This document shows positions 172 through 63,587 of a stretch of 64,000 nucleotides of DNA, piece after piece. The first letter of the stretch is position 1. Every line of letters begins with the position of its first letter. Position numbers and translations under genes: made by a program. This DNA is from a phage: the sequence record PZ049338.1; one strand, 5' to 3'. The notes beneath the pieces were generated by a model that worked only from the letters and a program-made list of their open reading frames with translations, did no database searches and was not told the origin of the DNA.

Positions 172-539
172 TTTTTAGTACCTATGGTAGATAAGTCTAC
201 GTTTTTGTAAAATTGTGCAACCTGATAAGCGCGGTCGGCGATGGTTGCGTCAGGGATTGGTCCACGTTCCACACCAGCGTCACAGTAGTAACACTGGAGG
301 ATGCAAACTTGTAACGCATATTCACGTCGTTGAACCCAGATACGGAAGAAGGTGTCTAGCTCTTCGTCCGAGTAGCGCAAGTAAGGGTCTTGCTTGATGC
401 GCTCGATTGATTCAGGGTGCAATGGTAGTGGCTTGTTGCCACCCATCACGAAAGGATAAAGCTGTCGCAGCGAAGATAGGACACGCTTGTAGGTATCATG
501 CTCAATTTGGGTGAAGCGAATCGGCGTGTGAGCTTTCAT
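168..539 (-). CDS. hypothetical protein (123 aa)
   Basis: ORF track; co-oriented with neighbours in a packed minus-strand block. Confidence 0.55.
   Translation of the reverse strand: MKAHTPIRFTQIEHDTYKRVLSSLRQLYPFVMGGNKPLPLHPESIERIKQDPYLRYSDEELDTFFRIWVQRREYALQVCILQCYYCDAGVERGPIPDATIADRAYQVAQFYKNVDLSTIGTKK
279..290 (-). other. strand-specific 12-mer (TACTACTGTGAC on minus), exact copy 1
   Basis: exact 12-mer; shares 18-mer with copy at 2539. Confidence 0.6.
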
Positions 540-906
540 TTAATTTTTCCTTATTACGCTGACCGAACATGTAATACGAAGACCAGTTTGCAGTTTGTGC
601 ATTGCAAATTGGGGTGATAACATTAGTGCAACCATTCATCGAAGATGATAACTCGATTACACTTGCAATGGATTGGTTTACGTTGACACTGCCAGCGCCC
701 ATCTGGATTGCTTCAACATAGCCATCAAACATAATGTCTAAGCATTCTTGACGATCTGTTAAATCGTCAACCATATCACACACAGCAGCAGCATCAGAGT
801 TCATCATGTCAACGATGTTGGCTGGAATATCTACCGGAGGAAGTTCAGCGGTAGCAGGCACAGGGTGACAGGCAGAGATAAACAAGGCCAGCAGTAAACG
901 TTTCAT
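502..906 (-). CDS. hypothetical secreted protein with N-terminal signal-peptide-like segment (134 aa)
   Basis: N-terminus MKRLLLALFISACHPVPATA is hydrophobic; start overlaps upstream stop (ATGA). Confidence 0.5.
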   Translation of the reverse strand: MKRLLLALFISACHPVPATAELPPVDIPANIVDMMNSDAAAVCDMVDDLTDRQECLDIMFDGYVEAIQMGAGSVNVNQSIASVIELSSSMNGCTNVITPICNAQTANWSSYYMFGQRNKEKLNESSHADSLHPN

Positions 907-1214
907 ATAATGATTTCCAGAGATTTAAGGTGAACACGCTTGAGGTGTCCATCTTTGAATTTAACAATAACATACGGGGAGAAGTACGGAGCACTGTCAC
1001 TGTGGTATTCACAGAAGGCCGTATGTTCAGATGAATAGCGATACATCAGGTCACGGTTACGCAGAATGCGACGCTTAGTGAAGTCGAGCGCCAGACCTTT
1101 ATCTTTGAAGCCGAGCTTTTTCATCTCAGCTTGTACATGATTCCACACAGAATAACGCATTATCCACCCATCCCAACGAAAGTAATCAGACCGAAAAACA
1201 CACCGAAGGCGCAC
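903..1214 (-). CDS. hypothetical protein (103 aa)
   Basis: ORF track; tight coupling to downstream gene. Confidence 0.5.
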   Translation of the reverse strand: MRLRCVFRSDYFRWDGWIMRYSVWNHVQAEMKKLGFKDKGLALDFTKRRILRNRDLMYRYSSEHTAFCEYHSDSAPYFSPYVIVKFKDGHLKRVHLKSLEIII

Positions 1215-1247
1215 AATGAAATGACGCCAGCCACATGAGCACGCGCC

Positions 1248-1259
1248 GTCACAGTAGTA
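1248..1259 (-). other. strand-specific 12-mer, exact copy 2 (intergenic)
   Basis: exact 12-mer. Confidence 0.6.
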
Positions 1260-1649
1260 TTACGAGTTGCCATGAGTGATTACCTTAACCAGAGTGTTAA
1301 CGTGAATTGAAGTAACGTCGCCAGTTTCCAGAACTTTGCAGCGAATTTCGTCGAACGTGCTGTCAATTTCAAGAACTAAATAAGTTTCTTGATTATCACA
1401 ATGACGATGGTCACATGGACGGCAAACATCATTGACTGACAGCGCGCCAATGGCAATTGGTTTTACTTCATCGGATGGACGCAGACGGCACGCAGCATAG
1501 GCCGGGAACTTTGCAACAGTCTTGCTGATTTCATTGACAGCCAGAACATTGTCATGCTCGCCATACATACGGATGCAAACGTAGACAGTATCATCACTGC
1601 CTAGACTGAATCGGTCGCCTAAATTCAATTCGAACATTTCACGTTTCAT
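1260..1649 (-). CDS. hypothetical protein (129 aa)
   Basis: ORF track. Confidence 0.55.
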   Translation of the reverse strand: MKREMFELNLGDRFSLGSDDTVYVCIRMYGEHDNVLAVNEISKTVAKFPAYAACRLRPSDEVKPIAIGALSVNDVCRPCDHRHCDNQETYLVLEIDSTFDEIRCKVLETGDVTSIHVNTLVKVITHGNS

Positions 1650-1662
1650 AAATCCACCTGAA

Positions 1663-1827
1663 TTAAGATAATTTCAAATTAGTGCCAGCTACAGTCGCAC
1701 TGATTGCAGGCCATACAGCCAGAATAAAGAAAATACCAGCGATTAAATCACCGCCGAAAAGCCAGAAGAAGGCAGAAAGGAACAGAAAGAACACGCTCAG
1801 GATAATTTTCAATAACGTTTTCATCAT
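1663..1827 (-). CDS. small hydrophobic membrane protein (54 aa)
   Basis: Not in ORF track. ATGATG start at 1827 with GAGAGG Shine-Dalgarno upstream; translation MMKTLLKIILSVFFLFLSAFFWLFGGDLIAGIFFILAVWPAIS... gives two predicted TM segments. Confidence 0.4.
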   Translation of the reverse strand: MMKTLLKIILSVFFLFLSAFFWLFGGDLIAGIFFILAVWPAISATVAGTNLKLS

Positions 1828-1943
1828 GAACCTCTCATTCGTTGTTGGGAATAGTCACAGTAGTTGGCACTGGCGGTAATGATGCCAATACTTGAGCGGC
1901 ATAATCAGCCATGAATTTCATGTACTCAGCAGGTGTAAGCATA

Positions 1944-2153
1944 TTAAAACCCCCACACGTTATTGTAGTAAGCATCGCCAGACGGACGGGATGAATCAAG
2001 TCGTGACAAATCATCACGGCGCTTAATACGGGCTTTCATTGCAGCACGGGCGGCAGCACGCTTTTTATAGCTTGCCTTGTTCTTGCCACGGGGCACAGCT
2101 TGCCCTTTCATTTTCTGCAATGAAATCAAATCGTTATAGCGTTTACTTGCCAT
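1944..2153 (-). CDS. small basic (Arg/Lys-rich) protein (69 aa)
   Basis: ORF track; composition KRAAARAAMKARIKRRDD suggests nucleic-acid binding. Confidence 0.45.
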   Translation of the reverse strand: MASKRYNDLISLQKMKGQAVPRGKNKASYKKRAAARAAMKARIKRRDDLSRLDSSRPSGDAYYNNVWGF

Positions 2154-2538: not shown

Positions 2539-2550
2539 GTCACAGTAGTA
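2539..2550 (-). other. strand-specific 12-mer, exact copy 3 (intergenic)
   Basis: exact 12-mer. Confidence 0.6.
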
Positions 2551-2561
2551 ACACTGCGGCC

Positions 2562-5040: not shown

Positions 5041-5198
5041 TATCAAAGTCAACAATCAAACGATGATTATCAAAGACGATTATCAAACGATAACTATCAA
5101 AGACGATTATCAAACGATAACCATCAAAGGATAACTATCAAAGGATAACTATCAAAGGATAACTATCAAAGGATAACTATCAAAGGATAACTATCAAA
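5041..5198. repeat. tandem array, about 12 units of 13-14 bp with core TATCAAAG/C (5 perfect GGATAACTATCAAA units at 5129-5198)
   Basis: read directly; iteron-like. Confidence 0.85.
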
Positions 5199-5803
5199 GG
5201 CTGGCATTTTAAACACCGACGTTTTAGCCTCACAAAATAACGGGAAGAAATATAGCTCAGGATACTTACTATTAGTAAGAACATAACCATGCTGGTTATT
5301 ATTACCATGCTATCTATGCGATGGCTTATCATTAGGTAGCTAACTATAACATCGTGCATCATATTCCATTGGTATCATTAGATGACTAATCATGTGCGTG
5401 CATAGTATATCACTTGAGATAATAACGCATGAATACTATATCACTTCCCATTATCAGCGGAGGTATATTAATCCCGTGAACTAATAGCCAACTAATTACT
5501 TATGATATAGTTGCCAATGTTATTAATAGATGAGGTATGGTATCATTTGTATATTAATAATAAGCAAGCTATCTATTCACTGGATGCAATTACAGTATTG
5601 TGCTTCATCCAATAGGCTGTATAATCGTTGTTACATTGTTAACGGTATATGTGCCGACCCACTTCCCCCTTTTTAAAAGTTGTGTGCGCAGCTAGCCCCC
5701 TATACCACCGCGTGAGAGTATGAGAATGAGGATACCCTAACCAATTAATGGGTGAGAGTGATTGCCCGTGGGTATGACCTCCCATCAGACAGTACTCATG
5801 ACC

Positions 5804-12580: not shown

Positions 12581-13546
12581 ATGGCAGATACTACTTTAGT
12601 TTCTTATGACCTGAATGGTAAGAAACTTTCCTTTGCAAACTGGATTTCTAACCTGTCTCCTACCGAGACCCCGTTCGTTTCCATGACTGGCAAAGAAGCA
12701 ATTAATCAGACTCTGTTCCAATGGCAGACTGATACGCTGGAAACCGCTAACCCGAACAACGCAGTTGTTGAAGGTTCTGCTGCTGAAGCTCCAGTTCGTA
12801 GCTCTACCACTGTACTGAACAACGTTACTCAGATTCTGCGTAAAGTGGTTCGTGTTTCTGATACCGCAAACGCTCTGGCGAACTACGGTCGTGGTCAGGA
12901 ACTCCAGTACCAGATGGAAAAAGCTGGTAAAGAAATCAAGCGTGACCTCGAAGTTGCTCTGCTGCGTAACGGCGCTAAAGTTGACGGTAACGGCACTACT
13001 GCTCGTAAGACCGCTGGCTTTACTGCTCTGGTTGCTGCTAAAGGTGTAGCTGACCCGGACACTGGTGCTGTTGTTCATAAAGAGACTGCTGTTAAGTCTA
13101 AGATTTCTGAAGCAGAACTGTTTGACCTGACGTACAACCTGTACCTGTCTGGTTCTAACGCGAACATCATCATGTTCCACCCGAAACACGCAAGCTTCTT
13201 CGCTTCCCTGATGGACACTCCGGCTGCTGGTACTAACCGCATGAAGATGTTCGACGGTAGCGATACTAAGTTTAACCAGTATGTTTCTAGCGTAGTTGAC
13301 CCGCTGGGTCAGTTGTACAAGCTGATTCCTAACCGTTGGATGGATGAGACTGAGATCTACTTCTTCACTCCTTCTGACTGGGATGCTGCTCGAATGGATT
13401 GGGGTAGTCGTGGTACTACCACTGTTGCTGGTGCTCACGAACACGCATTGCGTATTACTGGTGGTATCTTCTCTCAAGGTGATAACCAGAAGCACAACAA
13501 CATTCAACCATTCATTACTGTATATATGTGGCGTCGCATTTCTTAA
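12581..13546 (+). CDS. major capsid protein (321 aa)
   Basis: position after scaffold, GAGGAG SD, size typical; not motif-verified. Confidence 0.65.
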   Translation: MADTTLVSYDLNGKKLSFANWISNLSPTETPFVSMTGKEAINQTLFQWQTDTLETANPNNAVVEGSAAEAPVRSSTTVLNNVTQILRKVVRVSDTANALANYGRGQELQYQMEKAGKEIKRDLEVALLRNGAKVDGNGTTARKTAGFTALVAAKGVADPDTGAVVHKETAVKSKISEAELFDLTYNLYLSGSNANIIMFHPKHASFFASLMDTPAAGTNRMKMFDGSDTKFNQYVSSVVDPLGQLYKLIPNRWMDETEIYFFTPSDWDAARMDWGSRGTTTVAGAHEHALRITGGIFSQGDNQKHNNIQPFITVYMWRRIS

Positions 13547-13559
13547 TAGGAGTTAGTCC

Positions 13560-26503: not shown

Positions 26504-26748
26504 AACGGAATATCCTCTTCTAACTGTCTACGAACCTCAGCCTCTGACATTTCAACACAGACAGGGCAATACCACTGATTGTTGAGAACCGTTCCCCAGC
26601 CGCTTGCTACGGCCCCTGTTGTGGTTCGTATGCCACATGGACAAGGGACTAAGCCCTCGTCGTCAAGAATAAGTTTAGATTTAGTTTTAGCCACCAAATA
26701 ACTCCTTCGCCTGCTGTTTAAACTTCGCAACTTCTTCCGGGTTGTCAC
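26500..26748 (-). CDS. small Zn-ribbon protein (82 aa, GTG start)
   Basis: CPC...CPVC cysteine pairs; start codon lies inside a TACTACTGTGAC-like motif. Confidence 0.4.
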   Translation of the reverse strand: MTTRKKLRSLNSRRRSYLVAKTKSKLILDDEGLVPCPCGIRTTTGAVASGWGTVLNNQWYCPVCVEMSEAEVRRQLEEDIPF

Positions 26749-27256
26749 AGTAGTTTAAGTCAGCTTCAAGTAATGCGTAATGGATAACTTTCAAAAGATC
26801 TTGAAGACCATTCTTATCTTTGTGCCGGTATGCATACTTAATCATATTGCACTGTTGAAAATTTAACTGAGGATTTGCGTTGTAGAATTCAATTGGCTGA
26901 ATACGCCCACTACCTGCTTGATAGTGAGAACCACCAACCATAGTGCTTAATGAATTACCCTTAGATGCCATCGCTAATTGCTCCGTGTGGTCATGTGAAT
27001 AGTCTACTGGGGCAGTTTTATGTCCAGTAAGCATTGGTACGCAAATGTGGACTTCATTACGCTTACCCACATCAATTGCCTTTCTTTCATTACTTAATTC
27101 ATACCCTGTCATTTGGGCTAGGTTATGAAGTTGGTCAGACACTATCTCATACATCTTTCTAAAAGCTTTGGCAGATAAGGATGCTTCCTCGTATTTTCGG
27201 CTTAATACCTGAAGTTCCGCCTCAGTCTCGAAGTGATTAATCATCGTCTTCATCAT
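26687..27256 (-). CDS. hypothetical protein (189 aa), C-terminal conserved-looking SHYQAG...IQPIEFY region
   Basis: ORF track; resemblance to a phage DUF recalled only vaguely. Confidence 0.5.
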   Translation of the reverse strand: MMKTMINHFETEAELQVLSRKYEEASLSAKAFRKMYEIVSDQLHNLAQMTGYELSNERKAIDVGKRNEVHICVPMLTGHKTAPVDYSHDHTEQLAMASKGNSLSTMVGGSHYQAGSGRIQPIEFYNANPQLNFQQCNMIKYAYRHKDKNGLQDLLKVIHYALLEADLNYCDNPEEVAKFKQQAKELFGG

Positions 27257-28858: not shown

Positions 28859-29956
28859 TTATTCAATTGGATTTCCTTCTGCATCACATTCGCGGACGTA
28901 GAGTCCGACAGGGAACTGTGGTAAGCCATCGTTAGTGAGGGCTTGGTATTTGTAGGTAATCCATTTACCAAGGAGTTTAACTTGGCTATCATATTTCCGA
29001 AAATCATGTCCACCACGCATTTTACACTTGAAGTAATTCTTAGTACCCTTCATCTGGCAGACGAGTACACCCTCTTCATTAAGGTCTTTCTCAACGTGTG
29101 TTACGAATGCCTCAGCATCCTGCATTAACTTCCACTTCTGTAAGTTATGAGAGCGATGATTGAACTCGTAAAGACCATTCACATTACGAAGCATCATACC
29201 TTCATATCCATCATTAATGAATCTGTTCAGTAGAATCTGAGCAGAGATTTCATTATTGACTAAGATGTTAGGTACAACCTTGATGAACTGAGTTCTTACT
29301 TTAGTAACATCAGCAAGCATGTCATGTCGTGTTTCCCAAGTCACATCTGACACTGGAATATCAAACACATGGAACTCAAGTCGTGATGTATCTTTGTTAG
29401 GCTTCTTAGCCGCACTGACGATGTTTTGAAGAGGTAGTCCGTGGATGTACAACTCACCATCCAGCTTAGTGAATCCTGTCCGTTCAGATACGTCAATGAT
29501 TTCTTTCTTTAAATGCTCATGGCAGTCATATGTCTTACCGCCTCGGCTATGGAGGATAACCCCTTCATGAGTGATCTCAGCAATGCATCGAAGCCCGTCA
29601 AGCTTAGGAGAAACGTAGCAAGGCCAACTAATACGATGTCCCACTTTTGTATAATCGTGGGCCAACATGGGGAGGATTTCTCCGACACCCATCGCTTCCT
29701 CAACAGTGGGTCGGTAGCATTTATCGATTTGTTTGTTGTATTTTGATTCAGCTTCCAACAGAGCTTGTTCTTGTGCTGTCGTTTCATTTGCACGTCCTAC
29801 ATTCTTAGGCTTAGCAACAGTCTCCTTGATTTGCATCTTACCACCAAGACGACCATGTGTGACAATAACAGTATCATCAGAGACTCCGACAGTCCAAATC
29901 TTAATGTTACCCTTCTTGTCCTTAGCAAACAACTCTTTACAATAAACCATTCTCAA
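28859..29956 (-). CDS. ATP-dependent DNA ligase
   Basis: adenylation motif KLDGLR; 365 aa. Confidence 0.8.
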   Translation of the reverse strand: MRMVYCKELFAKDKKGNIKIWTVGVSDDTVIVTHGRLGGKMQIKETVAKPKNVGRANETTAQEQALLEAESKYNKQIDKCYRPTVEEAMGVGEILPMLAHDYTKVGHRISWPCYVSPKLDGLRCIAEITHEGVILHSRGGKTYDCHEHLKKEIIDVSERTGFTKLDGELYIHGLPLQNIVSAAKKPNKDTSRLEFHVFDIPVSDVTWETRHDMLADVTKVRTQFIKVVPNILVNNEISAQILLNRFINDGYEGMMLRNVNGLYEFNHRSHNLQKWKLMQDAEAFVTHVEKDLNEEGVLVCQMKGTKNYFKCKMRGGHDFRKYDSQVKLLGKWITYKYQALTNDGLPQFPVGLYVRECDAEGNPIE

Positions 29957-30468: not shown

Positions 30469-31285
30469 TATTTGTATCCTTACTTAGTTCATAATCTAAC
30501 CAGTCCCAGCTAAACAGGTTGTCTGCTGTTTGACCGATGTATAGTAAACGTGCTTGTTCAAGCATAACTTCTTCGTAATTCTCACCAAATACCTTTTTGT
30601 ATTCAGCGGAAACCACATCAAACATTTCCCTCACAGTAGTAAGACCATCCAACAACTTGATAGCTGTTGCCTCACCAACGCCTTTACGACGCAGTTGAAG
30701 TTTACCACCCCACATGACTTCTTTTCGAATACCACATCCGGGAATGTTATCGGTATTGTCTCCAGTCAGCATTTGCTGAAAGAAGAATAATTTAGATTCG
30801 AACTCTGGAACCCAATGTTTCAGAACTTCTGGTTGTCTATCACCACAAGCCCATCTATAATGCCAACCAAAACAAGTCCACATGTCCTTGTCACGAGTAG
30901 CAATCAGTGTATTCTCAGGGTCATTACGCTGCTCTATTGCCATCCAGTCGTCAGCCTCAATACCATCCACAATGATGTGGTTATAATATTTGACTATATG
31001 CTTCTCAACTGTTTCGTAATGGAAAGGCCTCGCTGTGTTTGGGTCACGATTACCCTTGTACTCCTGCTGAACAGCAACCTCATTTCTGAAATTACCTTTA
31101 CCAGACAATGCACAAATGTAACTGTCTCCCTTGTTAATCTTAATGACATGACGTATTAAATCATCTACAAGCTTAACAATCTCTGTCTCGGGTGCCGGTA
31201 TATACTCACCCTTAATGTAAGGATGAGCAGCTTTAATAGCACCAATCTGATACCGAAGAATGTCAGCGTCAATCAGTATACGCAT
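30314..31285 (-). CDS. 5'-3' exonuclease (FEN / T7 gene 6-like)
   Basis: YKGNRD and DxD-rich segments resemble recalled T7 gp6 (YKANRK). Confidence 0.7.
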   Translation of the reverse strand: MRILIDADILRYQIGAIKAAHPYIKGEYIPAPETEIVKLVDDLIRHVIKINKGDSYICALSGKGNFRNEVAVQQEYKGNRDPNTARPFHYETVEKHIVKYYNHIIVDGIEADDWMAIEQRNDPENTLIATRDKDMWTCFGWHYRWACGDRQPEVLKHWVPEFESKLFFFQQMLTGDNTDNIPGCGIRKEVMWGGKLQLRRKGVGEATAIKLLDGLTTVREMFDVVSAEYKKVFGENYEEVMLEQARLLYIGQTADNLFSWDWLDYELSKDTNNGEVLSSDVSECESGSICEHGESGSGELCTELDSVYYDDERPDIGDDPSIL

Positions 31286-36524: not shown

Positions 36525-38314
36525 TCCATATTCAACGACTCTCCAGCTTTTTTAACACACTGGTCAATCAACTCTCTTAATTTAACTACATCTTTGGTGG
36601 CGCAAGTGAACTGCATCTCATCGTGCATCATAATGACCTGATTTGCAAACAGCTTATCACGTTTAACCCAAGAAATCAGGTAGCAGTCAGCAATCTTCAT
36701 AACAATAGAACCAGCAGACTGGAGCATTGTATTCAGTGCTTTATGGGTCATCACCTCACCGGAGTTAGGGTCACGACGCATAATCAACTTACGACCATCA
36801 ATAGCTGGAACCCAACCATGTTTCGCTGCGAATGTTTGTACCCACTCCATAAGAACTGGAATACAAGGACATTCTTTCAGGAACTTATCACGAGCTTCCT
36901 GACCTTCGGCAACACCACCACCTAACTGAGCACCTAAGTTCGCATTACCAGCGCCATAGAGGAAAGCATAGATAAACGTCTTAGCCTGCTTACGAGTTGC
37001 TAGACCTGCAAGCTTCTGGTTGTGCGAGTGGATATCACCATTCAGAAGAACTTCACGATACTCTAGAGCGGAGTCGAGTGCTTTCTGATAATACTCAGCC
37101 TCTCGTGTCTTACCAGCTTCGAGAGCTTCCTCAAGCAGCATACGAGATACAGCAATGAGGTAGTGAGTAAGCATACGAAGTTCAAGACCTGCACCATCCC
37201 CACCTACGAAAGCCTGTTGGCCCTCTGGGATAAGGTATGTACAGTGTCCTACATCTTCCCACTTCTTACCATTGAACTCCTGCATGATGTTAGTCAGTGG
37301 CTTACGACGAAACTTGCCAGACTCAATCATTTTCTTGGTGAGCTTAGGAACCAGAATGCCACGACGACCCATCTCAGAGTCACAGTAGTCACCCTTAAAT
37401 AAGTGACGACATTCTTCACCCAGCAACGCACCAGCAGCAGGAATGTTAACAATTGTCTTGTGACGCATACGAGCAGTTGGTGTAGCGCATGGGTTGGCTT
37501 CACCAGACAGCTTACCATCAGCACGTACTTGAGCAATCAAACCTTCTAAGAGGGAACGACGATGCGCAAGCTGCATACGATGCTTCAAGAGCGTCAATGC
37601 CTGACTCTCATCCTCACCAACTGAATCAAAAGAATCATCAGTGATTTGTGGAGAAGTCGGCCAGAACTGTTTCAGTAGAAGTTTCTTCTTAATGGCATCG
37701 AAGTTAGGAACCTTTCTGCTCAGGTCGAAACCTAAAGCAACCAGAATTGCCTTCATGTAACCCTTCGTCTGGTCACGGAAGTGTGTATCAATAAACCCGT
37801 TAACAGCGTTGGTGAATGCAAGTCTGTCCTCAGAATCACACTGTTCATTGATGAACTTAGCGTATGAGGTTTTCTCCAAACGTTTGCGATACTGCCAAAC
37901 TTGGAAAGGTGTCTTCTTCTCGTTCCACTCAGTAGGAACCCAACCCATATCCATCATGACTTTCTTCAGTCGAGATGTTTTACCAGGGTCGAATGGTGTA
38001 TACCATACAGCGGAGAATGGCCCACTAACATCTTCAGAAGAGAGTCCATGAATGTCCATGTACTTCTGAACGAATGCTTTAGGTTGACCGTTCAACTTAA
38101 ACGGAGCTTTATACTCTGAACCCTTGTGCATCATAGGAGGAAGCAAAGGGATTAATTCGAGGTCAATCTTGAGGATACGCTCATTCAATGAGTGAACCAA
38201 CCAAGAAGCACCACGCTTATCAAAGTTACAGCCATGTTTCCACTGATTCGAAATCAAATCAGCGACTTTCTGTTCTAACAGGAATGGTTTAGTCCAATCC
38301 GGCTTGATATCCAT
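36470..38314 (-). CDS. family A DNA polymerase, polymerase domain only (614 aa)
   Basis: motif A DGAGLELR, motif B RKQAKTFIYAFLYG, motif C HDE; no 3'-5' exo motifs in this ORF. Confidence 0.85.
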   Translation of the reverse strand: MDIKPDWTKPFLLEQKVADLISNQWKHGCNFDKRGASWLVHSLNERILKIDLELIPLLPPMMHKGSEYKAPFKLNGQPKAFVQKYMDIHGLSSEDVSGPFSAVWYTPFDPGKTSRLKKVMMDMGWVPTEWNEKKTPFQVWQYRKRLEKTSYAKFINEQCDSEDRLAFTNAVNGFIDTHFRDQTKGYMKAILVALGFDLSRKVPNFDAIKKKLLLKQFWPTSPQITDDSFDSVGEDESQALTLLKHRMQLAHRRSLLEGLIAQVRADGKLSGEANPCATPTARMRHKTIVNIPAAGALLGEECRHLFKGDYCDSEMGRRGILVPKLTKKMIESGKFRRKPLTNIMQEFNGKKWEDVGHCTYLIPEGQQAFVGGDGAGLELRMLTHYLIAVSRMLLEEALEAGKTREAEYYQKALDSALEYREVLLNGDIHSHNQKLAGLATRKQAKTFIYAFLYGAGNANLGAQLGGGVAEGQEARDKFLKECPCIPVLMEWVQTFAAKHGWVPAIDGRKLIMRRDPNSGEVMTHKALNTMLQSAGSIVMKIADCYLISWVKRDKLFANQVIMMHDEMQFTCATKDVVKLRELIDQCVKKAGESLNMECPLASDSMLGASWFHTH

Positions 38315-39044: not shown

Positions 39045-39401
39045 TTAATCCTTCTTCTTCTTGCTCTTAGGCTTGCTCACAGGTAAACGGGACTTAGCGC
39101 CCTTACGTCCACCTGCGGCCTTACCTTTTGAGCTACCAGACTTACCACCAGCAGACATATTCTCGCTGGCATCACGTAAACGCAAATTACTGCGGTCATT
39201 GGAGCCACCATCTTTAACTGTCTTCTTGTGGTCAACGTGTACAGATGTTGGCAATTTTCTACCGATGCTCTTTTCCATCTCTCGACGGGCACGGTGTCGC
39301 ATTGCATCCTTAGACTTCTTACCAACGCCGGTATCACCACGCTTTATAGCAGTGATACGTTCTTGTGCGTAGTTTCGTACATAACCCGGTGAACTAGGCA
39401 T
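39045..39401 (-). CDS. basic protein with HNH-like motif (HVDHKK...GGSNDRSNLRL)
   Basis: motif read by eye; candidate small HNH nuclease. Confidence 0.45.
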   Translation of the reverse strand: MPSSPGYVRNYAQERITAIKRGDTGVGKKSKDAMRHRARREMEKSIGRKLPTSVHVDHKKTVKDGGSNDRSNLRLRDASENMSAGGKSGSSKGKAAGGRKGAKSRLPVSKPKSKKKKD

Positions 39402-39629: not shown

Positions 39630-39795
39630 CCGGCATTGTTTCTTTACAACACGGGCATATGTAATAGTGTGAATAGTCCTCAGTGCTTACGCGTTTCATG
39701 GGAACAAAACACCAATCACATTCAATACTTTTCACACCGTACATAATGAATACCTTATTTAAGACTCTTCTCAACTCTACGAGTAATATACTCAC
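39574..39795 (-). CDS. small Zn-ribbon protein (73 aa)
   Basis: CDWC...CPCC. Confidence 0.45.
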   Translation of the reverse strand: MSILLVELRRVLNKVFIMYGVKSIECDWCFVPMKRVSTEDYSHYYICPCCKETMPGERFDEYEYEWGDYNGQE

Positions 39796-46635: not shown

Positions 46636-47310
46636 TTACAGAGTGTCATAGTAGTCTGCGCGATTATGCAGACACCAGTCACCCGACTCAACACGGTTAC
46701 TGTCGCCTTGGTCTTCATCAATGTGATAAATCCAAGCCTTTGCGAAGGAACCATCATCCAGTTGGATTTCAACCTGCGTACGGTTATAGAAACCATTCTC
46801 AGGGTCACAGGCACTGTACCCTTCCAGCATGTCGTATGCACCAGTCAGACCTTCCAGAGGTGCTTCAAATACATCAACAACAACCTGCTTGCCAGACTTG
46901 TTAGCCTTAAGGTTCACGGAAGGGAAGTAGGAGCCACCGTAGCGATATAAATCGAACTGGTCTACAGTCACACCCTTACTTACAAATTCACCGCCGCCAC
47001 GAGCGTTTACGTGGAAATTCTGCATGTTGCGACGCAGAGAGCCATAAGTTGCGATGAATACTTTACCGTCTGAAGGAATTACTAAGTTCTTTGACATTAC
47101 TTGTCCTGTTTTAGGTTGTAGATAATATTTAACTTCGACAAATCGCCATGTGTTCTGGAGGTTCTCTGCCATTTCTTTTGCTTCTGGGTAAGTTAAGCCA
47201 CAGCCAAGCTGATAACCTTCCTCACCCTTACTCATGCGACCAATCAGTAAATAACGAACTTCATGGTCACCTGTTAGTGGTTCTTTAATTGAGAGCTTCA
47301 TCTTATACAC
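46636..47310 (-). CDS. gamma-glutamyl cyclotransferase-like (AIG2/GGCT fold) domain protein
   Basis: FIATYGSLRR ... DMLEGY ... YNRTQV fits GGCT pattern. Confidence 0.55.
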   Translation of the reverse strand: MYKMKLSIKEPLTGDHEVRYLLIGRMSKGEEGYQLGCGLTYPEAKEMAENLQNTWRFVEVKYYLQPKTGQVMSKNLVIPSDGKVFIATYGSLRRNMQNFHVNARGGGEFVSKGVTVDQFDLYRYGGSYFPSVNLKANKSGKQVVVDVFEAPLEGLTGAYDMLEGYSACDPENGFYNRTQVEIQLDDGSFAKAWIYHIDEDQGDSNRVESGDWCLHNRADYYDTL

Positions 47311-49182: not shown

Positions 49183-50344
49183 TAATTACATCGTTAGTTG
49201 TAACCATGATTTCCCAGCCAGCCAGTTCGAACATACCACCGGTGAATACACCTACGTTACGAACATCATCGTTACGCATCTGAACGATGTAGATGCCGTT
49301 TTCAACCAAGCGAATTGGTTCCTGACGCGTCACAGTAGCTGTTACCTCTGCTTCGATAGCGAAGTTTTCATCTTCAGCAGCTTCTACTGCATTGTCTGTG
49401 GCAGTCTGGTTCTGAGTTACAATGTCAACCAGTTCCTGAGCGGCAGCGTTACCACGAACGATTGCTGCTTGCAATTCACTGTTGGTGTTCACTTCATTTT
49501 GCAATTCAGCCAGAGCTTCATTAATATCTTCGACAGCATAAACTTCCTGACCATTGAAGATTGCCATTACGTTGGCTGCAAAACGTTCTGCGTTAGAACC
49601 GGTCATACCCGGAGCAGTGTTAACTTCCAGTACCCACGCTTCATCACGACGAGTAATGAGGTCAACTGCACCGTAGTCCAGACCCAGAGCAGCGATTGCT
49701 TTCAGGGCTTCACGCTTAGCTTCTTCATTAGGCTCAGCCTGCTGAGTTGCATAAATCCAACCAGTGTGGTGATTTCGGATAATATCACTGTATTCTGGCA
49801 GGTCAGCGTAACCGTTCACACGCTTCTTCTGCTGAATGTTAGTGATAACACCATTCATCACATGGATGCGGTATTCACGACGCTGAGCATTAACACCCTT
49901 GGTGTAAAGCTGTGCATTAGCCAGAGTACCTTGAACACCATCACCGAAAAGCTCTTCGTTGTTGGTTGCAATCACAATGCCTTCACCAGAGTGTCCAGAA
50001 AGGCGTGTACGGCAATAAACCAGATGACCTGCATCAAGCCATGACTGAGCTTCTTCACGGTCTGTAGTGTACTCTACAGTCTTCACATCATTGCGACGGA
50101 ATACTTCGAAAGAGATACGTTTGTTGGTCGCATTACCAACGTTGTACGGGTTGTTCAGGATGCGGGCATTGCCGATGATTTCGGCAGATAGGGAGGATGA
50201 ACCGTAGTTGACAATTAAGTCACCACTGCGACCACGGAAGCGAGAGCCATCAGTCAGGAGACGAAGTGCTCCCGGCATTAAAGGCATGAGTTCGTTCAGG
50301 GTGTCAGAAGGGCCATTTGAATATACACGTAAGCGAGGTGCCAT
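49157..50344 (-). CDS. ATP-grasp ligase
   Basis: C-terminal ATP-grasp signature WVLEVNTAPGMTGS. Confidence 0.7.
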   Translation of the reverse strand: MAPRLRVYSNGPSDTLNELMPLMPGALRLLTDGSRFRGRSGDLIVNYGSSSLSAEIIGNARILNNPYNVGNATNKRISFEVFRRNDVKTVEYTTDREEAQSWLDAGHLVYCRTRLSGHSGEGIVIATNNEELFGDGVQGTLANAQLYTKGVNAQRREYRIHVMNGVITNIQQKKRVNGYADLPEYSDIIRNHHTGWIYATQQAEPNEEAKREALKAIAALGLDYGAVDLITRRDEAWVLEVNTAPGMTGSNAERFAANVMAIFNGQEVYAVEDINEALAELQNEVNTNSELQAAIVRGNAAAQELVDIVTQNQTATDNAVEAAEDENFAIEAEVTATVTRQEPIRLVENGIYIVQMRNDDVRNVGVFTGGMFELAGWEIMVTTNDVIIVESLGVL

Positions 50345-54612: not shown

Positions 54613-55196
54613 TGTGGTAATTCCTTGGCTAAAAAGCGAACCAAGTGACGTGCTTCAGCAGCCACTTCGATAGCATCGTCAGAGAGGAACTTACCGATGC
54701 TCACATCCTTGTAGCGTAAGTCTGAATTGACACGCAGGAATACCCCTCCAATAACTTCAGGATACTCATTTTTGTTGAAGAACGCTTTGATGTTCTCCCA
54801 ACTAAAGCGGAAGTTGTTACAGATACGGCTGTGGGTTAACCCCTTCTTAGTTGAGCGATTTGCACGATAACTGACCCATACGAAGTTGTTTCCAATCTTC
54901 ACGAATGCAGGCTCAGGTAATTCTAGAACCAGATTCGGGTCAGTATGAGAGATGGATACGTTACGGTAATTACCATCGTCACCCATCGTCGTTCCGTGGA
55001 ATACCAGAGCATCTTCAGCTTCCTGAGAATACGCTGCACGGTCACGCTGTGCTCGCGTCATTTCACTGAAATCCAGAACAGTATTGTCATGGGTCACTGC
55101 GTCAATCTGGAAGGGCTGGACTTTACCAGCCTCATCCTTCAGACCAACGTAAGTCCCAGAGTAATACATTGAGAAATCGTCGGTAAGCATTAGCAA
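54579..55196 (-). CDS. hypothetical protein (205 aa) within amidoligase cluster
   Basis: ORF track; overlaps both neighbours. Confidence 0.5.
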   Translation of the reverse strand: MLMLTDDFSMYYSGTYVGLKDEAGKVQPFQIDAVTHDNTVLDFSEMTRAQRDRAAYSQEAEDALVFHGTTMGDDGNYRNVSISHTDPNLVLELPEPAFVKIGNNFVWVSYRANRSTKKGLTHSRICNNFRFSWENIKAFFNKNEYPEVIGGVFLRVNSDLRYKDVSIGKFLSDDAIEVAAEARHLVRFLAKELPQCQITVTTPQD

Positions 55197-55993
55197 ATCT
55201 CCATCACACGTACATATTCTTTAGCCAGAGCTTTGTCATTGTTGTTAATGACACGCTGTACTTCTTCCGGGTTGATGATTGATGCGATGCCACGGAAATC
55301 ACCACGCATCATAGCGAATGCTTTCTGAGCTTGTTCCCAAGCCCATTTGCGATTCTCTTTGTTCATAATCCAGAAGTTGGACATTACACGATATTCGATA
55401 CCGTATGGCTTGAAGCGGCAAGCACCAGCTTTACCATACAGTTCTTTTCGACGGTCATCACCGTCCAGCAGGAGGGCGGGCAGTCCCAGGAAGTAGTCAC
55501 ACATCACGCCGAGAACTTTCTGACTTTCGGACGTCACAGTAGTAACTGTATCGTAGCCAACGTGGATGTGACCACCTGCTGTACGAAGACCGGGGTCAGC
55601 AGCTTGAGGTTTAGGATTACGCATACCAGTCAGTGCGTTGTAATCAGGCTCACAGCCGAATACGAATGCATCTTTGTGGAAGCGTTCCAGTTCAGCAGCG
55701 GTGTAGATATGAGAACTGACATTCATTGCCAGTTCATGACCTACATAACCAACTGCTTCTTCACAGTATTTGATACCATCAACAATGTTCTTGTCGAAGG
55801 ATTCAAAATCACTATGCGGGTTGGTGTCGAACTCAACCAGCACGTTATCTTCCTGAATACGAACGTCTTCCGTGACTGCTTTCTTGTTGTACTTGTCCGC
55901 TCCAAGCAGACCTGAAACAGAACTGATAGCCCCTGTGCTCGAATCACGAGTGAACAACTCAGGGTCGGTAGCCAACAAAATAACATTAGACAT
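55190..55993 (-). CDS. glutamine-synthetase-fold carboxylate-amine ligase (GCS2/YbdK-like amidoligase), 267 aa
   Basis: GGHIHVGYD and YGIEYRVMS match recalled YbdK HVHVG and VEVRVMD. Confidence 0.6.
   Translation of the reverse strand: MSNVILLATDPELFTRDSSTGAISSVSGLLGADKYNKKAVTEDVRIQEDNVLVEFDTNPHSDFESFDKNIVDGIKYCEEAVGYVGHELAMNVSSHIYTAAELERFHKDAFVFGCEPDYNALTGMRNPKPQAADPGLRTAGGHIHVGYDTVTTVTSESQKVLGVMCDYFLGLPALLLDGDDRRKELYGKAGACRFKPYGIEYRVMSNFWIMNKENRKWAWEQAQKAFAMMRGDFRGIASIINPEEVQRVINNNDKALAKEYVRVMEIC
55533..55544 (-). other. strand-specific 12-mer, exact copy 4 (intragenic)
   Basis: exact 12-mer. Confidence 0.6.
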
Positions 55994-59759: not shown

Positions 59760-60025
59760 TACGCATCCCCGATATGTTTACATTCAACTTTAACACGGAC
59801 AACCTGAGTATCAGCCAGTGGTGCGCTGACATTACCAGTCTCGATGTTAGTCAGGTGTACGCGGTGGTATCCCGGAAGAGCATTAATACTAACATTTGAG
59901 GAGTTGGCTACATCACCAACTAGGTAAAGAGTGTCGCCATTAACAAAACGAACAACTTCACCGGGTTTTGCTTGACAAAGACCAATAACTTTTGGCATTG
60001 GTACTTTTGATTTTGTCACTTTCAT
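59759..60025 (-). CDS. hypothetical protein (88 aa)
   Basis: ORF track. Confidence 0.45.
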   Translation of the reverse strand: MKVTKSKVPMPKVIGLCQAKPGEVVRFVNGDTLYLVGDVANSSNVSINALPGYHRVHLTNIETGNVSAPLADTQVVRVKVECKHIGDA

Positions 60026-60327
60026 TTATGTAACCTCAGGAATACATGTAACACAGTGGATGCACGGTTAGTAACTGAATTAACCGAACGGTTTAGCTTC
60101 TTTGCAATCCAATCGCGAGGACGAATACCAGCCCACTTGCGAATGAAGTCATCATCCTTGTCAGTGTAAGGTTGACGCTGTTTTGCACGGGAGATTTTGA
60201 ATCGTGAGCAGGCACCAATGATAACCGTCACAGTAGTACCCATCTTTTCAGCCACTTCTTCAACTGAATACTTCTTAATCAAACGTTCTAAACGCTTGAT
60301 GTTCTTATTTGTCCAAGTAAATTGCAT
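60022..60327 (-). CDS. small basic protein, possible HTH regulator (101 aa)
   Basis: AGGAGG SD; motif and hairpin upstream. Confidence 0.5.
   Translation of the reverse strand: MQFTWTNKNIKRLERLIKKYSVEEVAEKMGTTVTVIIGACSRFKISRAKQRQPYTDKDDDFIRKWAGIRPRDWIAKKLNRSVNSVTNRASTVLHVFLRLHK
60227..60238 (-). other. strand-specific 12-mer, exact copy 5 (intragenic)
   Basis: exact 12-mer. Confidence 0.6.
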
Positions 60328-61946: not shown

Positions 61947-62164
61947 TACAAACCCCCATGTCTACATTTAACAAGAATGCCGTCAATGATGATGTAGTGT
62001 GAATGGTAAACCATTTCACGAGGTATATCACCATGTTCGCTGTTCCACTGGATAAAGTTCATCCGTTCCCAATCAATATATTGGGACTTCGCTTGAGCAA
62101 TTACTTCTTCCAGAGTGACTTCACCATAAGGACTCATTGACTTCATCATTTCACAAACTGACAT
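61946..62164 (-). CDS. hypothetical protein (about 73 aa)
   Basis: start trimmed to ATG 62164, 1 nt after upstream stop. Confidence 0.4.
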   Translation of the reverse strand: MSVCEMMKSMSPYGEVTLEEVIAQAKSQYIDWERMNFIQWNSEHGDIPREMVYHSHYIIIDGILVKCRHGGL

Positions 62165-62165
62165 A

Positions 62166-62477
62166 TCAACTCCTGTCAAAGTCGAGAACAACACTACCGT
62201 TCTTCTCAATCTCAGCCATAACTTTATTGTACTCATTCACTGTTCGAACGAGTGCAGCCTTCGGGTTGGCTTGCATGGCAATACCCATGACAACGCCTTG
62301 AACTTGAGGGTCAGTCACCCAAGTATTAACGATTGCTGATGCACAACCAACAATCTTAGGAATCACGCGTGGTTTACGCTTTTCAGTGCGAGCACTATCA
62401 CACTCGATAAGGTAAGTCATTATCAGTGCTTCAAGGGCTTCCTCATACTGAAAGAGTTTTTCATCTTGAACAATCAT
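62166..62477 (-). CDS. hypothetical protein (103 aa)
   Basis: ORF track. Confidence 0.45.
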   Translation of the reverse strand: MIVQDEKLFQYEEALEALIMTYLIECDSARTEKRKPRVIPKIVGCASAIVNTWVTDPQVQGVVMGIAMQANPKAALVRTVNEYNKVMAEIEKNGSVVLDFDRS

Positions 62478-62696
62478 TAGAAGTCCTTAAAATAGGAGGC
62501 GGGGACGAGCCGCCTTTACCCTATGAGTTAAGTTTGCATGTAAGACCTAACAATCGGATGCCTTCAGCGGAATAAGCGTTATGCGTATCCTGCACTAAAC
62601 TCCCGCCCCCTTAGTGGGCTGGGTGTATAAAGGGTAACGCCCTTATGGGCTAGTTACATGAATGTTAGTTTGATAGGAGATCTGACGTCCTATCTC

Positions 62697-62720
62697 AAAG
62701 GGCTCTCAGAAGAACCCTTT
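62697..62720 (-). other. conserved hairpin (AAAGGGCTCTCAGAAGAACCCTTT) in 250-bp intergenic region
   Basis: 10-bp stem; family member. Confidence 0.45.
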
Positions 62721-62728
62721 ACGATAGT

Positions 62729-62977
62729 TTACAGATGCAGCATGTACGTGTGCAGTGCATCGTGAGCCATCTCACGAGTTGGATAAGGCATAGACCAAAG
62801 TCCAGCTTCATCACTGTACACATAAGCACACTCATTACTTACCGGGTCACGCAGTTTGGTAATCAGTGGGTCAACATGCTCAACCACTATTGCACCGTGT
62901 GATGCTGCTTCTTGGAGGAGGTTTGCAGTATTACTTGTAACCCTCACACCTCCGAAGTATTGAAGATGTCTTGCCAT
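62729..62977 (-). CDS. hypothetical protein (82 aa)
   Basis: ORF track. Confidence 0.45.
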   Translation of the reverse strand: MARHLQYFGGVRVTSNTANLLQEAASHGAIVVEHVDPLITKLRDPVSNECAYVYSDEAGLWSMPYPTREMAHDALHTYMLHL

Positions 62978-63315
62978 TATGAGAATAAACCTCCTCGACT
63001 GAATTTAGGTTTTGGTGGTTCAACCGACTTCTTCATTGTTACGAGTGAGTTCAACCCCTTCTTAATAGCTTCAGATATTTCAGCGTATATCTTTGCATCA
63101 AGTAGGATGAAATCCCCAACAGGCTTGCCACCAGATAGTACACTCTGGATGGTTTCCTCACCAAAGGTAAACTTTGGCCCGAACCCTCCGAAGAAGTGGA
63201 CTGTACCAGCCAATTCGTCACGAGAAACAATGCTCATTTCGATGTGAGTAACACCCGGCACTGAATCAAACTGACAGCGAATCTTAACAGATGGAAAACT
63301 CAGTACACTAATCAT
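62977..63315 (-). CDS. hypothetical protein (112 aa)
   Basis: ORF track. Confidence 0.45.
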   Translation of the reverse strand: MISVLSFPSVKIRCQFDSVPGVTHIEMSIVSRDELAGTVHFFGGFGPKFTFGEETIQSVLSGGKPVGDFILLDAKIYAEISEAIKKGLNSLVTMKKSVEPPKPKFSRGGLFS

Positions 63316-63587
63316 TGTTTCTTACCCGGAAGAAGTTTGTAGAGGAAATCCACCCAAAGTTTACCGAAGCAAATTCCAGTGAACACACCCAAAACAGCGA
63401 CAAGGCCTAGGGGCCATAAGAAAATCATCACAGTAGTAAACGTTACATCTGGATGACCTTTCTTCTCACGACTTCTGAACATATCAGAGCCTAGTTGGTC
63501 AGCCAGACGTACCGCACCGATTGTGGCTACAATTCCTATTAGGTAAATGGCAACTATAAGGATGAGGTAATCAGAAAAGCTGTTCAT
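63312..63587 (-). CDS. small two-TM membrane protein (holin-like candidate)
   Basis: two hydrophobic segments in 91 aa; function speculative. Confidence 0.45.
   Translation of the reverse strand: MNSFSDYLILIVAIYLIGIVATIGAVRLADQLGSDMFRSREKKGHPDVTFTTVMIFLWPLGLVAVLGVFTGICFGKLWVDFLYKLLPGKKQ

Follow-up and report, generated by a model that had tools for sequence, protein, structure and literature searches.

A strand-restricted dispersed word in a Grimontviridae phage as a candidate set of tf-type nick sites

Dispersed along one strand of a Salmonella-type phage of the Grimontviridae is a short word that probably marks the sites recognised by a strand-specific nicking system encoded by the phage. 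The analysed stretch, referred to here as the window (64,000 nucleotides of record PZ049338.1), is 97% identical to the plasmid-dependent phage Lu221. The core of the word, TACT/GTGAC, is an experimentally mapped nick site in the Pseudomonas phages tf and Rembedalsseter (PMC3517423, PMC11780129). An earlier note on this DNA had proposed nicking on one strand from a Pseudomonas phage consensus, TACT/RTGMC, which is correctly that of tf (PMC3517423). On the strength of sequence identity with a site of proven nicking, and of comparative genomics, this is the reading best supported computationally, by the shared core and gene modules, the family-wide strand-exclusive motif and the avoidance of the opposite strand. 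If it is true, Grimontviridae nick their own DNA in the manner of the unrelated-looking tf and Rembedalsseter.

Distribution and conservation of the word

Ten predicted sites and two doubtful ones are listed here, with coordinates given on the plus strand.

279..290, minus strand: predicted nick site TACTACTGTGAC, break between plus coordinates 284 and 283; inside ORF 168-539 (minus), frame YYCD; kept in Lu221 despite differing flanks, positional counterpart at 85062 in 7-11
1248..1259, minus strand: predicted nick site TACTACTGTGAC; abuts the stop codon of ORF 1260-1649 (minus), with the start at 1214 lying 34 nt downstream; same flanks in Lu221 (1357) and 7-11 (86020)
1854..1865, minus strand: predicted nick site AACTACTGTGAC, ending GTT on plus; also kept in Lu221
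2539..2550, minus strand: predicted nick site TACTACTGTGAC; intergenic, start codon at 2508 lying 31 nt downstream; kept in Lu221
26744..26755, minus strand: predicted nick site AACTACTGTGAC, ending GTT on plus; ORF 26687-27256 (minus), frame NYCD; positional counterpart at 31791 in 7-11
37379..37390, minus strand: predicted nick site GACTACTGTGAC, ending GTC on plus; within the DNA polymerase gene 36470-38314 (minus), in a variable segment (DYCD in the window, KRK in 7-11)
46645..46656, minus strand: predicted nick site GACTACTATGAC, R=A variant (GTCATAGTAGTC on plus, TACTATGAC on minus); 3' end of the gamma-glutamyl cyclotransferase-like gene 46636-47310 (minus); kept in Lu221
49329..49340, minus strand: predicted nick site AGCTACTGTGAC, ending GCT on plus; ATP-grasp gene 49157-50344 (minus), frame TATVT
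55533..55544, minus strand: predicted nick site TACTACTGTGAC; COOH-NH2 ligase gene 55190-55993 (minus), frame TTVT
60227..60238, minus strand: predicted nick site TACTACTGTGAC; ORF 60022-60327 (minus)
30630..30641, minus strand: doubtful or decayed site TACTACTGTGAG (CTCACAGTAGTA on plus); last core base G, outside TACTRTGMC; not predicted to be nicked efficiently
63427..63438, minus strand: doubtful or decayed site TACTACTGTGAT (ATCACAGTAGTA on plus); last core base T, outside TACTRTGMC

Recounting over the whole window recovered, at the same plus-strand positions, the five exact copies of the 12-mer GTCACAGTAGTA that the earlier note had reported (279, 1248, 2539, 55533 and 60227). The mean expectation from dinucleotide shuffles is 0.01 copies, and none of 100 shuffles reaches five. 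With up to two mismatches there are 15 matches (5.6 expected), 14 of them on the plus strand. Read on the minus strand, the core of the word is AC-TACTGTGAC-G; CTACTGTGAC occurs nine times on that strand and TACTRTGMC ten times, both with zero occurrences on the plus strand, so the claimed restriction to one strand holds. The motif is also the top-ranked 9-, 10- and 11-mer of the window. All variants that the note had listed (1854, 26744, 37379, 49329 and 63427) are present; those at 30630 and 46645 had been overlooked.

As had been noticed, an 18-mer is common to the copies at 279 and 2539; the flanks of the sites are otherwise unrelated. The sites fall in variable protein segments in two reading frames (YYCD-type and TTVT-type) and are intergenic or nearly so at 1248 and 2539, which argues, in agreement with the earlier note, that conservation acts at the DNA level. 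They are concentrated in the first-transcribed early genes, as in tf, with few or none in the structural block: between 2551 and 26743, an interval that covers the plus-strand structural block and includes the late block already described as devoid of the word, there are no copies. The only hits in this interval, both at chance level, are AACTATGAC at 11734 and, on the other strand, a match with two mismatches at 8927.

The strand opposite the core, which is the plus strand of the window, is depleted even of near-variants. Core variants within one mismatch number 1 there in the window, against a Markov-3 expectation of 6.8 +/- 2.3, and the corresponding figures are 4 against 8.7 in Lu221, 3 against 7.4 in 7-11 and 0 against 3.3 in tf. 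This is the pattern predicted by selection against a nick opposite a nick.

A strong strand bias extends to the relatives when both strands are counted. Among 9- to 11-mers, the same word is the most over-represented not only in the window but also in Lu221, 7-11 and tf, and in GAP52 as the variant TACGGTGAC; it is the top 12-mer of Privateer. Lu221 has 12 bottom-strand copies and 1 top-strand copy and keeps all ten window sites although flanks differ; 7-11 likewise has 12 and 1, but only three of the ten window sites are positionally common to it. GAP52 carries ACTACGGTGACG (8 bottom, 1 top), and in Privateer (9 bottom, 0 top) T and G are mixed at core position 4. Each of three kuravirus genomes examined has exactly three extended copies, and 40 IMG/VR loci with the HNH gene described below have 71 motifs on the HNH sense strand and 8 antisense. 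The word is thus kept across genomes of 34% to 54% GC; between genera the sites turn over, while number, strand and early-gene clustering persist.

Relative to local genes, the sites are in sense orientation at 10 of 10 positions in the window, 13 of 13 in Lu221 and 12 of 13 in 7-11. Nearly all sites in the family, including the single top-strand ones of 7-11 and Lu221, are sense to local genes, as an RNA-level signal would also predict.

Proposed reaction and candidate enzyme

By analogy with tf, we infer that the sequence recognised on the minus strand would be 5'-AC TAC(T) GTGAC G-3' and that the motif-bearing strand would be cut after TACT, leaving a ligatable 3'-OH/5'-P nick. The window would then contain about ten nicks, all on the minus strand, after plus coordinates 284, 1253, 1859, 2544, 26749, 37384, 46650, 49334, 55538 and 60232, counting down the minus strand. 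For the early and replication genes, the strand that is nicked would be the coding, non-template one, so that the template of RNA polymerase would stay intact. Once the DNA is injected, resealing could plausibly fall to the phage ATP-dependent ligase or to the host ligase. A literature search found no physical evidence of nicks in Grimontviridae or kuravirus phages.

The genes and the promoter that bear on this scheme, or on the promoter reading discussed below, are as follows.

39045..39401, minus strand: candidate nickase, a divergent protein of the HNH (His-Me finger) type, 118 aa long and carrying a K/R-rich tail
39665..39690, minus strand: 7-11-type late promoter-like GTAAGC-N16-ACTA, the P69 equivalent, followed by a small ORF and the HNH gene
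28859..29956, minus strand: ATP-dependent DNA ligase (Pfam DNA_ligase_A_M, E=2.8e-18)
31477-32046: phage-encoded sigma factor

Among the proteins considered, the enzyme would most likely be the HNH-like protein of 39045-39401, expressed from the late promoter and acting on ACTACTGTGACG-containing DNA; our confidence that it is the nickase falls slightly short of even. The nickase is named in neither PMC3517423 nor PMC11780129. Residues H58, N68, N72 and N81 are invariant, and fold-search matches, although weak, include many HNH nuclease domains (GVE2 HNH endonuclease, I-HmuI and ZRANB3). Its gene is present in every motif-bearing lineage examined, which makes it a credible candidate; it travels with the whole replication module, however, so the fact that it accompanies the motif does not point to it in particular. 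Between the window and tf, where the homologue is unannotated, the protein is 57-59% identical, the highest value of all common proteins. In 7-11 the homologue is gene 68, and the first late promoter is placed upstream of gene 69 in the 7-11 paper. If the HNH protein is the enzyme, expression from a late promoter would mean that capsid-bound DNA is nicked late in infection.

The earlier note had named two HNH genes as possible sources of the nickase, and only this one stands. The other, an HNH_3 gene (36063-36524), has no counterpart in Lu221, 7-11, phiEco32 and tf, all of which keep the motif, and is a lineage-specific homing endonuclease. The endonuclease I-like gene, unlike the HNH gene, is absent from phiEco32.

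One point counts against the nicking reading: substitution at core position 4 (TACC) abolishes nicking in tf (PMC3517423), and GAP52 has G at that position. The reading therefore requires that the specificity of the enzyme has changed, which we assume.

Other readings of the word

A polar DNA signal that is read uncut, such as a Chi-like RecBCD site, an orienter of a translocase or of packaging, or a site of replication pausing or priming, is an unlikely reading that nevertheless carries some weight. Identity with the tf site would then reflect a common DNA-binding protein, not common nicking. Such signals also show strand polarity, clustering at the first-transcribed genome end and avoidance of the other strand, and the demonstrated breaks come from other phages, the Grimontviridae side of the case being sequence-based. 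Yet every physically examined copy of the exact 9-mer in tf and Rembedalsseter coincided with a strand break, and the replication module of the window is common to nicked phages. As for priming, 10-12 specified bases are more than a primase site would require, the predicted start of the primer falls elsewhere than the nick in tf, and the nicks of tf, being ligatable, leave no gap.

The earlier note had also raised an RNA processing signal, by which early and middle transcripts would be cleaved, processed or bound by a protein at UACUACUGUGAC. We regard this as quite improbable. Still in its favour are the sense orientation of the sites and the position of two window sites 31-34 nt upstream of start codons. 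It is weakened by the depletion of the opposite strand, which it does not explain: that strand is sense only in 6.3-25 kb and is otherwise presumably untranscribed. Moreover, the antisense sites (2 of 14 in tf, 1 of 13 in 7-11) keep the full extended consensus, most sites lie deep in essential ORFs such as that of DNA polymerase, where cleavage would destroy the message, and the signal in tf is a DNA break that is repaired by T4 DNA ligase (PMC3517423).

Very improbable is the third reading, a promoter, or part of one, for the phage sigma factor, or another transcription signal. A sigma factor is indeed encoded in the window, two sites are intergenic, and the word opens with ACTA, similar to the downstream element in the late promoter of 7-11 (GTAAtg-N16-aCTA). 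The experimentally mapped 7-11 promoters, however, are bipartite elements that precede late genes, and the early transcription of 7-11 begins at two sigma-70 promoters located at the end of the genome. A search with the 7-11 consensus recovers sites consistent with all eight published 7-11 promoters and, in the window, picks out separate equivalents at +5907, +12440, +17546, +23869, -33148 and -39690, whereas GTAA stands at the required distance in none of the ten motif sites. The late block has no copy of the motif, most copies are within ORFs, and tf has the same motif, with a phage sigma factor unreported in its paper and record. Owing to the different consensus of the 7-11 promoters, the promoter role suggested in the earlier note is rejected.

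Chance, a codon-usage artefact or a repeated mobile-element remnant is a negligible prospect, being refuted by the shuffles, the unrelated flanks, the two reading frames, the top k-mer rank and the conservation in Privateer and over the range of GC content.

Comparison with phages of known nick sites

The closest known system is that of tf (Pseudomonas putida, Krylovvirus), in which nicks at TACT/RTGMC were mapped by sequencing run-off, ligase-reversible alkaline gels and primer extension (Glukhov et al. 2012, PMC3517423) and are annotated as sci1 to sci14 in HE611333. Eleven of the 14 are at TACTGTGAC (PMC3517423), and the window has this identical 9-base core together with the minor variant TACTATGAC, which is nicked in tf at sci1. 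G follows the core at 11 of 14 sites in tf, 6 of 10 in the window and 10 of 13 in Lu221. In both phages there are about 10-14 copies per genome, all or nearly all on one strand, mostly in early and replication genes and on the coding strand, and near-variants on the other strand are avoided. Common to the two are TerL, portal, scaffold and major capsid protein, DNA polymerase (42% identity), primase-helicase (45%), both exonucleases, the endonuclease I-like protein and the amidoligase cluster. They differ in that the window phage belongs to the Grimontviridae, infects Enterobacteria and has a genome of about 68-90 kb, against 46 kb in tf; AC is kept 5' of its core, giving a 12-mer; related genera (GAP52, Privateer) accept or require G at core position 4; and it encodes its own ligase and sigma factor. 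The nicks of tf are physically mapped, and those of the window phage are predicted.

Rembedalsseter and 60 Bruynoghevirus-like phages share with the window the motif, its strand exclusivity, its mostly coding-strand placement inside and outside ORFs and its retention while genomes diverge. Drops in nanopore strand coverage occur in Rembedalsseter at WACTRTGAC (Dougherty et al. 2025, PMC11780129). The window genome lies outside this cluster of 61 Pseudomonas phages, beyond which that study saw no motif enrichment in a survey of 250 genomes that may not include these enterobacterial phages (PMC11780129).

Like the GVE2 HNH endonuclease and the nicking homing endonuclease I-HmuI, the predicted nuclease of 39045-39401 has a beta-beta-alpha core and a DH...N...N signature, and its model is weakly closest to such domains. 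It differs from them in being without zinc-binding cysteines, in lying away from the terminase genes with no association with introns or homing, and in having a basic tail and, at the N-terminus, an additional conserved helix (RHRARR).

Site-specific, ligatable interruptions in one strand of virion DNA are also found in T5/BF23 (R/GCGCRGG) and phiKMV-like phages (CGACxxxxxCCTA/CTCCGG), whose low site numbers resemble the three of the kuraviruses, but whose consensus sequences are unrelated and belong to other phage lineages.

Distribution of the motif and its scarcity on the opposite strand

Scattered over the window are five exact copies of the 12-mer GTCACAGTAGTA, starting at 279, 1248, 2539, 55533 and 60227 and found exclusively on the plus strand, against a chance mean of 0.01 copies in dinucleotide-preserving shuffles of the window; our recount agrees with the number, strand and coordinates recorded in the earlier note. 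At a tolerance of two mismatches the word has 15 matches where 5.6 would be expected, and 14 of them are on the plus strand. Each close variant named in that note is present, but its list was incomplete, lacking those at 30630 and 46645. Read on the minus strand, the sites align as the conserved unit (T/A/G)AC-TACTGTGAC-(G), with the nine-base core TACTGTGAC in nine sites and TACTATGAC in one; outside this word the alignment reveals no likeness except six extra bases common to 279 and 2539, the longer repeat already noticed between these two copies. The word is the commonest 9-, 10- and 11-mer of the entire window. CTACTGTGAC occurs nine times on the minus strand and never on the plus strand, and TACTRTGMC ten times and never, respectively, with about one copy per strand expected by chance in the 64 kb.

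Two plasmid-dependent phages of the family Grimontviridae, PKM.Lu.22.1 (Lu221) and PKM.Hi.22.6 (Hi226), match the window at 97% identity; more remotely related to it are Salmonella phages 7-11 and SE131, Cronobacter phage GAP52, and Proteus and Aeromonas phages. Minus-strand genes (early, replication and nucleotide-metabolism) occupy 1 to ~3.4 kb and 25–64 kb, and plus-strand genes (head, tail and lysis) 6.3–25 kb. Missing from the window at ~13546–13560 is an insert of ~8.7–8.9 kb in Lu221 (OQ829281.1 13466–22376) containing tail genes, among them one for a ‘tail formation protein’, so that the tail/receptor-binding module differs from, and is shorter than, that of these 97%-identical plasmid-dependent relatives. 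Within the ORF-poor region at ~3.4–6.2 kb is a head-to-tail array of the 14-bp unit GATAACTATCAAAG (5091–5200, plus strand; at least six exact copies), preceded just upstream by degenerate copies, also all on the plus strand; this iteron-like array may serve as an origin of replication, in packaging or in regulation.

Motif sites are distributed over 0.3–2.5 kb and 26.7–60.2 kb, with none at 2551–26743, a span including the plus-strand structural block. From one site to the next along the window the distances are 969, 606, 685, 24205, 10635, 9266, 2684, 6204 and 4694 nt. As the early and replication genes lie on the minus strand, the motif is carried by their coding (non-template) strand. The sites span two reading frames of these genes, encoding Y-C-D-type tetrapeptides in one and T-T-V-T-type in the other, and two are intergenic or nearly so; conservation is therefore at the level of DNA and not of protein, as the earlier note had argued.

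Near-variants, defined as nine-mers within one mismatch of TACTGTGAC, were counted and compared with third-order Markov simulations. The plus strand of the window has a single near-variant where 6.8 ± 2.3 are expected, fewer than in any of 60 simulations, and the minus strand has 18 against 8.0. Avoidance is also seen in Lu221 (4 against 8.7 expected) and 7-11 (3 against 7.4), and on the un-nicked strand of the Pseudomonas putida phage tf (0 against 3.3), where comparable scarcity was observed by the authors who mapped its nicks (PMC3517423). Such avoidance is expected of a nuclease that scans both strands, if opposed cuts are harmful.

Turnover and variants of the motif in relatives

The strand bias extends to relatives, with bottom/top counts of 12/1 in Lu221, 12/1 in 7-11 and 9/0 in Privateer. 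All ten window sites are kept in Lu221, even where the flanks differ. In 7-11 the sites have the same AC...G extension as in the window, and six are within the last 6 kb, adjoining early promoters. Of the ten window sites, only three have a positional counterpart in 7-11, the others being located in variable protein segments; the DNA polymerase, for example, reads GDYCDSE at the window site and GDKRK in its 7-11 counterpart. In this comparison, single sites come and go, with their number, strand and clustering maintained; both the statistics within the window and this comparative pattern are direct observations.

The sole top-strand sites of 7-11 (13089, plus strand) and Lu221 (17616, plus strand) occupy homologous positions within one and the same tail gene, part of a tail module missing from the window. 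These are probably real ‘wrong’-strand sites and not chance matches, because the full AC...G context is kept in both.

The word itself varies. In GAP52, the genome of which lacks TACTGTGAC, the top-ranked word is ACTACGGTGACG (8 bottom, 1 top), with a change at the position directly 5′ to the cut in tf; GAP52 is the sole clear T-to-G switch lineage available. Privateer (34.5% GC) has six ACTACTGTGACG and three ACTACGGTGACG, bottom strand throughout, and its top 12-mer is CGTCACAGTAGT. Across 40 IMG/VR loci encoding the small HNH protein discussed below (683 kb), TACKRTGAC occurs 71 times on the HNH sense strand and 8 times on the opposite strand, with ~10 per strand expected under a uniform model. 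Three IMG/VR loci carry other words: in L015 and L048 the motif is antisense to the HNH gene, in the forms ACTACTATGA(T/G/C) and GCTACTGTGACG, respectively, and L043 has two copies of ACTACTCCGACG. They may represent additional variants in specificity or orientation.

The kuravirus phiEco32 has just three copies of the core, all in the extended form TTNTAGTACTRTGACG, two of the three being intergenic.

Extended motif sites in phiEco32
27941, plus strand, TTNTAGTACTRTGACG
63062, minus strand, TTNTAGTACTRTGACG
70584, minus strand, TTNTAGTACTRTGACG

Each of three IMG/VR kuravirus genomes likewise has exactly three copies of TTNTAGTACTRTGACG, in the strand pattern of phiEco32, and we consider the phiEco32 copies to be candidate nick sites in a well-studied Escherichia coli phage.

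The candidate nickase

Genes of the window considered as part of a nicking system
39045–39401, minus strand, small HNH protein (118 aa)
36063–36524, minus strand, HNH_3 + HTH protein, adjoining the DNA polymerase gene
24129–24554, endonuclease I-like protein
28859–29956, phage ATP-dependent ligase

Comparison with tf by blastp and tblastn reveals a shared large terminase (41% identity), portal, scaffold, major capsid protein and one tail protein, together with the DNA polymerase (42%), primase-helicase (45%), 3′–5′ and 5′–3′ exonucleases and a T7 endonuclease I-like protein. Also common to both is a cluster of amidoligase, glutamine amidotransferase, ATP-grasp, COOH-NH2 ligase and gamma-glutamyl cyclotransferase. 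By these matches the window phage and tf are distantly related. The LUZ24/tf-type replication module is present in the window, as in the tf-type nick phages, and the motif therefore travels with the shared replication module. The highest identity among the shared genes, 57–59%, is that of the small HNH protein.

One or other of the two HNH proteins had been suggested as a possible nickase in the earlier note. Only the small one is conserved in tf, 7-11, GAP52 and phiEco32; the HNH_3 gene has no homologue in Lu221, 7-11, phiEco32 or tf, for which it is rejected as the nickase, and only a weak match in GAP52 (25.9% identity, E=0.001). A clear HNH endonuclease of the homing type, it looks like a recently acquired, free-standing one. 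The endonuclease I-like gene, common to tf, 7-11 and GAP52, is a less likely nickase, being missing from phiEco32 with its three extended sites; members of this family are structure-specific rather than sequence-specific.

The small HNH protein, listed as ‘hypothetical’ almost everywhere and placed in a PHROG of unknown function, scores below threshold with Pfam HNH (19 bits against a cut-off of 21.4). Among 25 diverse homologues, nine match HNH and seven HNH_3, all weakly, and a PDB sequence search with the family profile gave no match. H58, N68, N72 and N81 are invariant in these 25 sequences, forming a D-H...N...N-L...N signature, and an RHRARR helix and a basic tail are also shared. The AlphaFold model (mean pLDDT of 70, core ~80–88) has a hairpin-plus-helix core comprising strands 54–58 and 73–77 and helix 78–83, a predicted arrangement with the hairpin histidine, conserved asparagines and helix of a ββα-metal core.

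Homologues were detected by tblastn in 250 phage records, mainly Pseudomonas phages (~44–46 kb among the matches listed, like LUZ24 and tf), phiEco32-type Escherichia phages and Grimontviridae. The tf homologue is unannotated (HE611333 16129–16416, plus strand); its start codon is the TTG at 16129, which follows a GGAG by 8 nt. Overlapping it in another frame is the annotated tf_29 (16115–16429; phrog_11010), with which the window protein gives no alignment; phrog_11010 may be a family of mis-called frames.

In phiEco32 the gene of the small HNH protein is phi32_58. In 7-11 it is gene 68, which follows directly on gene 69. The first late promoter was described as preceding gene 69 (PMC8948821), and a promoter-like sequence equivalent to it is located at 39690–39665 in the window. 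Late expression would suit an enzyme that marks DNA due for packaging. This circumstantial evidence points to the small HNH protein as a better nickase candidate than the HNH_3 gene.

Alternative readings, proposed mechanism and known nick systems

The motif could be a polar DNA signal that is read without being cut, which we regard as unlikely. Less probable still is a role in transcripts, as an RNA processing signal. Its almost exclusively sense orientation across the phage family of the window would fit such a role, but an RNA-only signal does not predict the depletion of near-variants on the opposite strand, the antisense sites in tf and 7-11 keep the full consensus, sites are located deep within essential genes, and the tf break is proven in DNA.

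A promoter, the other alternative raised in the earlier note, is very improbable and was rejected. The eight mapped late promoters of 7-11 are bipartite (GTAAtg-N16-aCTA) and its two sigma-70 early promoters are at the right end (PMC8948821). All ten window sites depart from the 7-11 consensus (gp47 sigma factor), none having the upstream element GTAA at −22; the phiEco32 gp36 consensus, tAATGTAtA, is likewise unlike the motif. The intergenic motif search in the 7-11 paper found nothing besides its promoters, and nicks are not mentioned there (PMC8948821). Our search of 7-11 with GTAAnn-N16-ACTA gave matches consistent with all eight published promoters, and the true consensus matches of the window are located away from the motif sites, six of them at positions equivalent to 7-11 P1, P8, P22, P28, P48 and P69.

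Matches to GTAAnn-N16-ACTA in the window
5907, plus strand, 7-11-type promoter equivalent
12440, plus strand, 7-11-type promoter equivalent
17546, plus strand, 7-11-type promoter equivalent
23869, plus strand, 7-11-type promoter equivalent
33148, minus strand, 7-11-type promoter equivalent
39690, minus strand, 7-11-type promoter equivalent
44260, minus strand, further match
46639, minus strand, further match

This arrangement suggests that the window phage runs a sigma-dependent late programme like that of 7-11. A primase site or unsealed Okazaki junction was rejected on theoretical grounds, the motif being too long, a GTC-type primer start being expected off the tf cut position and the tf nicks being ligatable.

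For nicking, the preferred reading, we infer the break, its position and timing, the enzyme and the resealing as follows. Late in infection, the small HNH protein would recognise ACTAC(T/G)GTGACG and, by cutting the strand with the motif after TAC(T/G), would introduce ligatable nicks into the non-template strand of the early and replication genes. Genomes would be packaged in this nicked state and, after injection, sealed by the phage ATP-dependent ligase or a host ligase.

Knowledge of programmed nicks in phage virion DNA goes back to work on T5 in the 1960s, and the kind of system proposed here is already known. Within the searchable literature the motif has been reported for the Pseudomonas cluster only; searches for the motif string and for nicks in Grimontviridae or Kuravirus found just two papers, both on Pseudomonas phages, and neither names the enzyme. 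New here would be the phage family of the window as a carrier, the candidate nickase and the natural specificity variants. Tentatively, tf-type nicking may be ancestral to a supergroup of Krylovvirus/Bruynoghevirus, Grimontviridae and Kuravirus, with a cysteine-less module HNH of ~100–120 aa as the nickase and with drifting specificity; the drift would comprise, in GAP52-like phages, the change from T to G on the 5′ side of the cut and, in kuraviruses, the reduction to three extended sites.

If the phage family of the window carries tf-type nicks, nicking would extend beyond the Pseudomonas cluster to enterobacterial, Proteus and Cronobacter phages, and probably also to the abundant kuraviruses, and the ~50-year-old question of what phage genome nicks are for would become testable in tractable E. 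coli and Salmonella phages with easy knock-outs, phiEco32 with its three sites being an especially clean model. There would also be a concrete candidate enzyme, with natural specificity variants TACT, TACG and TACK; a nickase that recognises 10–12 bp would cut unusually rarely for a natural nicking enzyme. Nicks in the genome have a bearing on nanopore sequencing, on assembly and on the quality control of phage DNA for therapy.

Among known nick systems, the motif is unrelated to the T5 consensus (R/GCGCRGG) and to that of the phiKMV group (CGACxxxxxCCTA/CTCCGG), both quoted in PMC3517423, and sites of either type were rejected. The counterpart is tf, in which Glukhov et al. described 14 single-strand interruptions in the top strand, each within 5′-TACT/RTGMC-3′, the consensus correctly given in the earlier note, and 11 of them at TACTGTGAC. 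These ligatable 3′-OH/5′-P breaks were mapped by primer extension, by run-off sequencing of native DNA and by alkaline gels whose pattern T4 DNA ligase reversed, and are present in at least 90–95% of molecules (PMC3517423) and annotated in HE611333. For Rembedalsseter, Dougherty et al. described nanopore coverage that falls on one strand at 13 occurrences of WACTRTGAC, a word enriched in 61 related Pseudomonas phages (PMC11780129). The window resembles tf in having multiple copies of TACTRTGMC on a single strand, few near-variants opposite and a concentration in early genes. A G follows the core at 11 of 14 tf sites, at six of ten window sites and at ten of 13 Lu221 sites, and both words of the window, TACTGTGAC and TACTATGAC, are nicked in tf.
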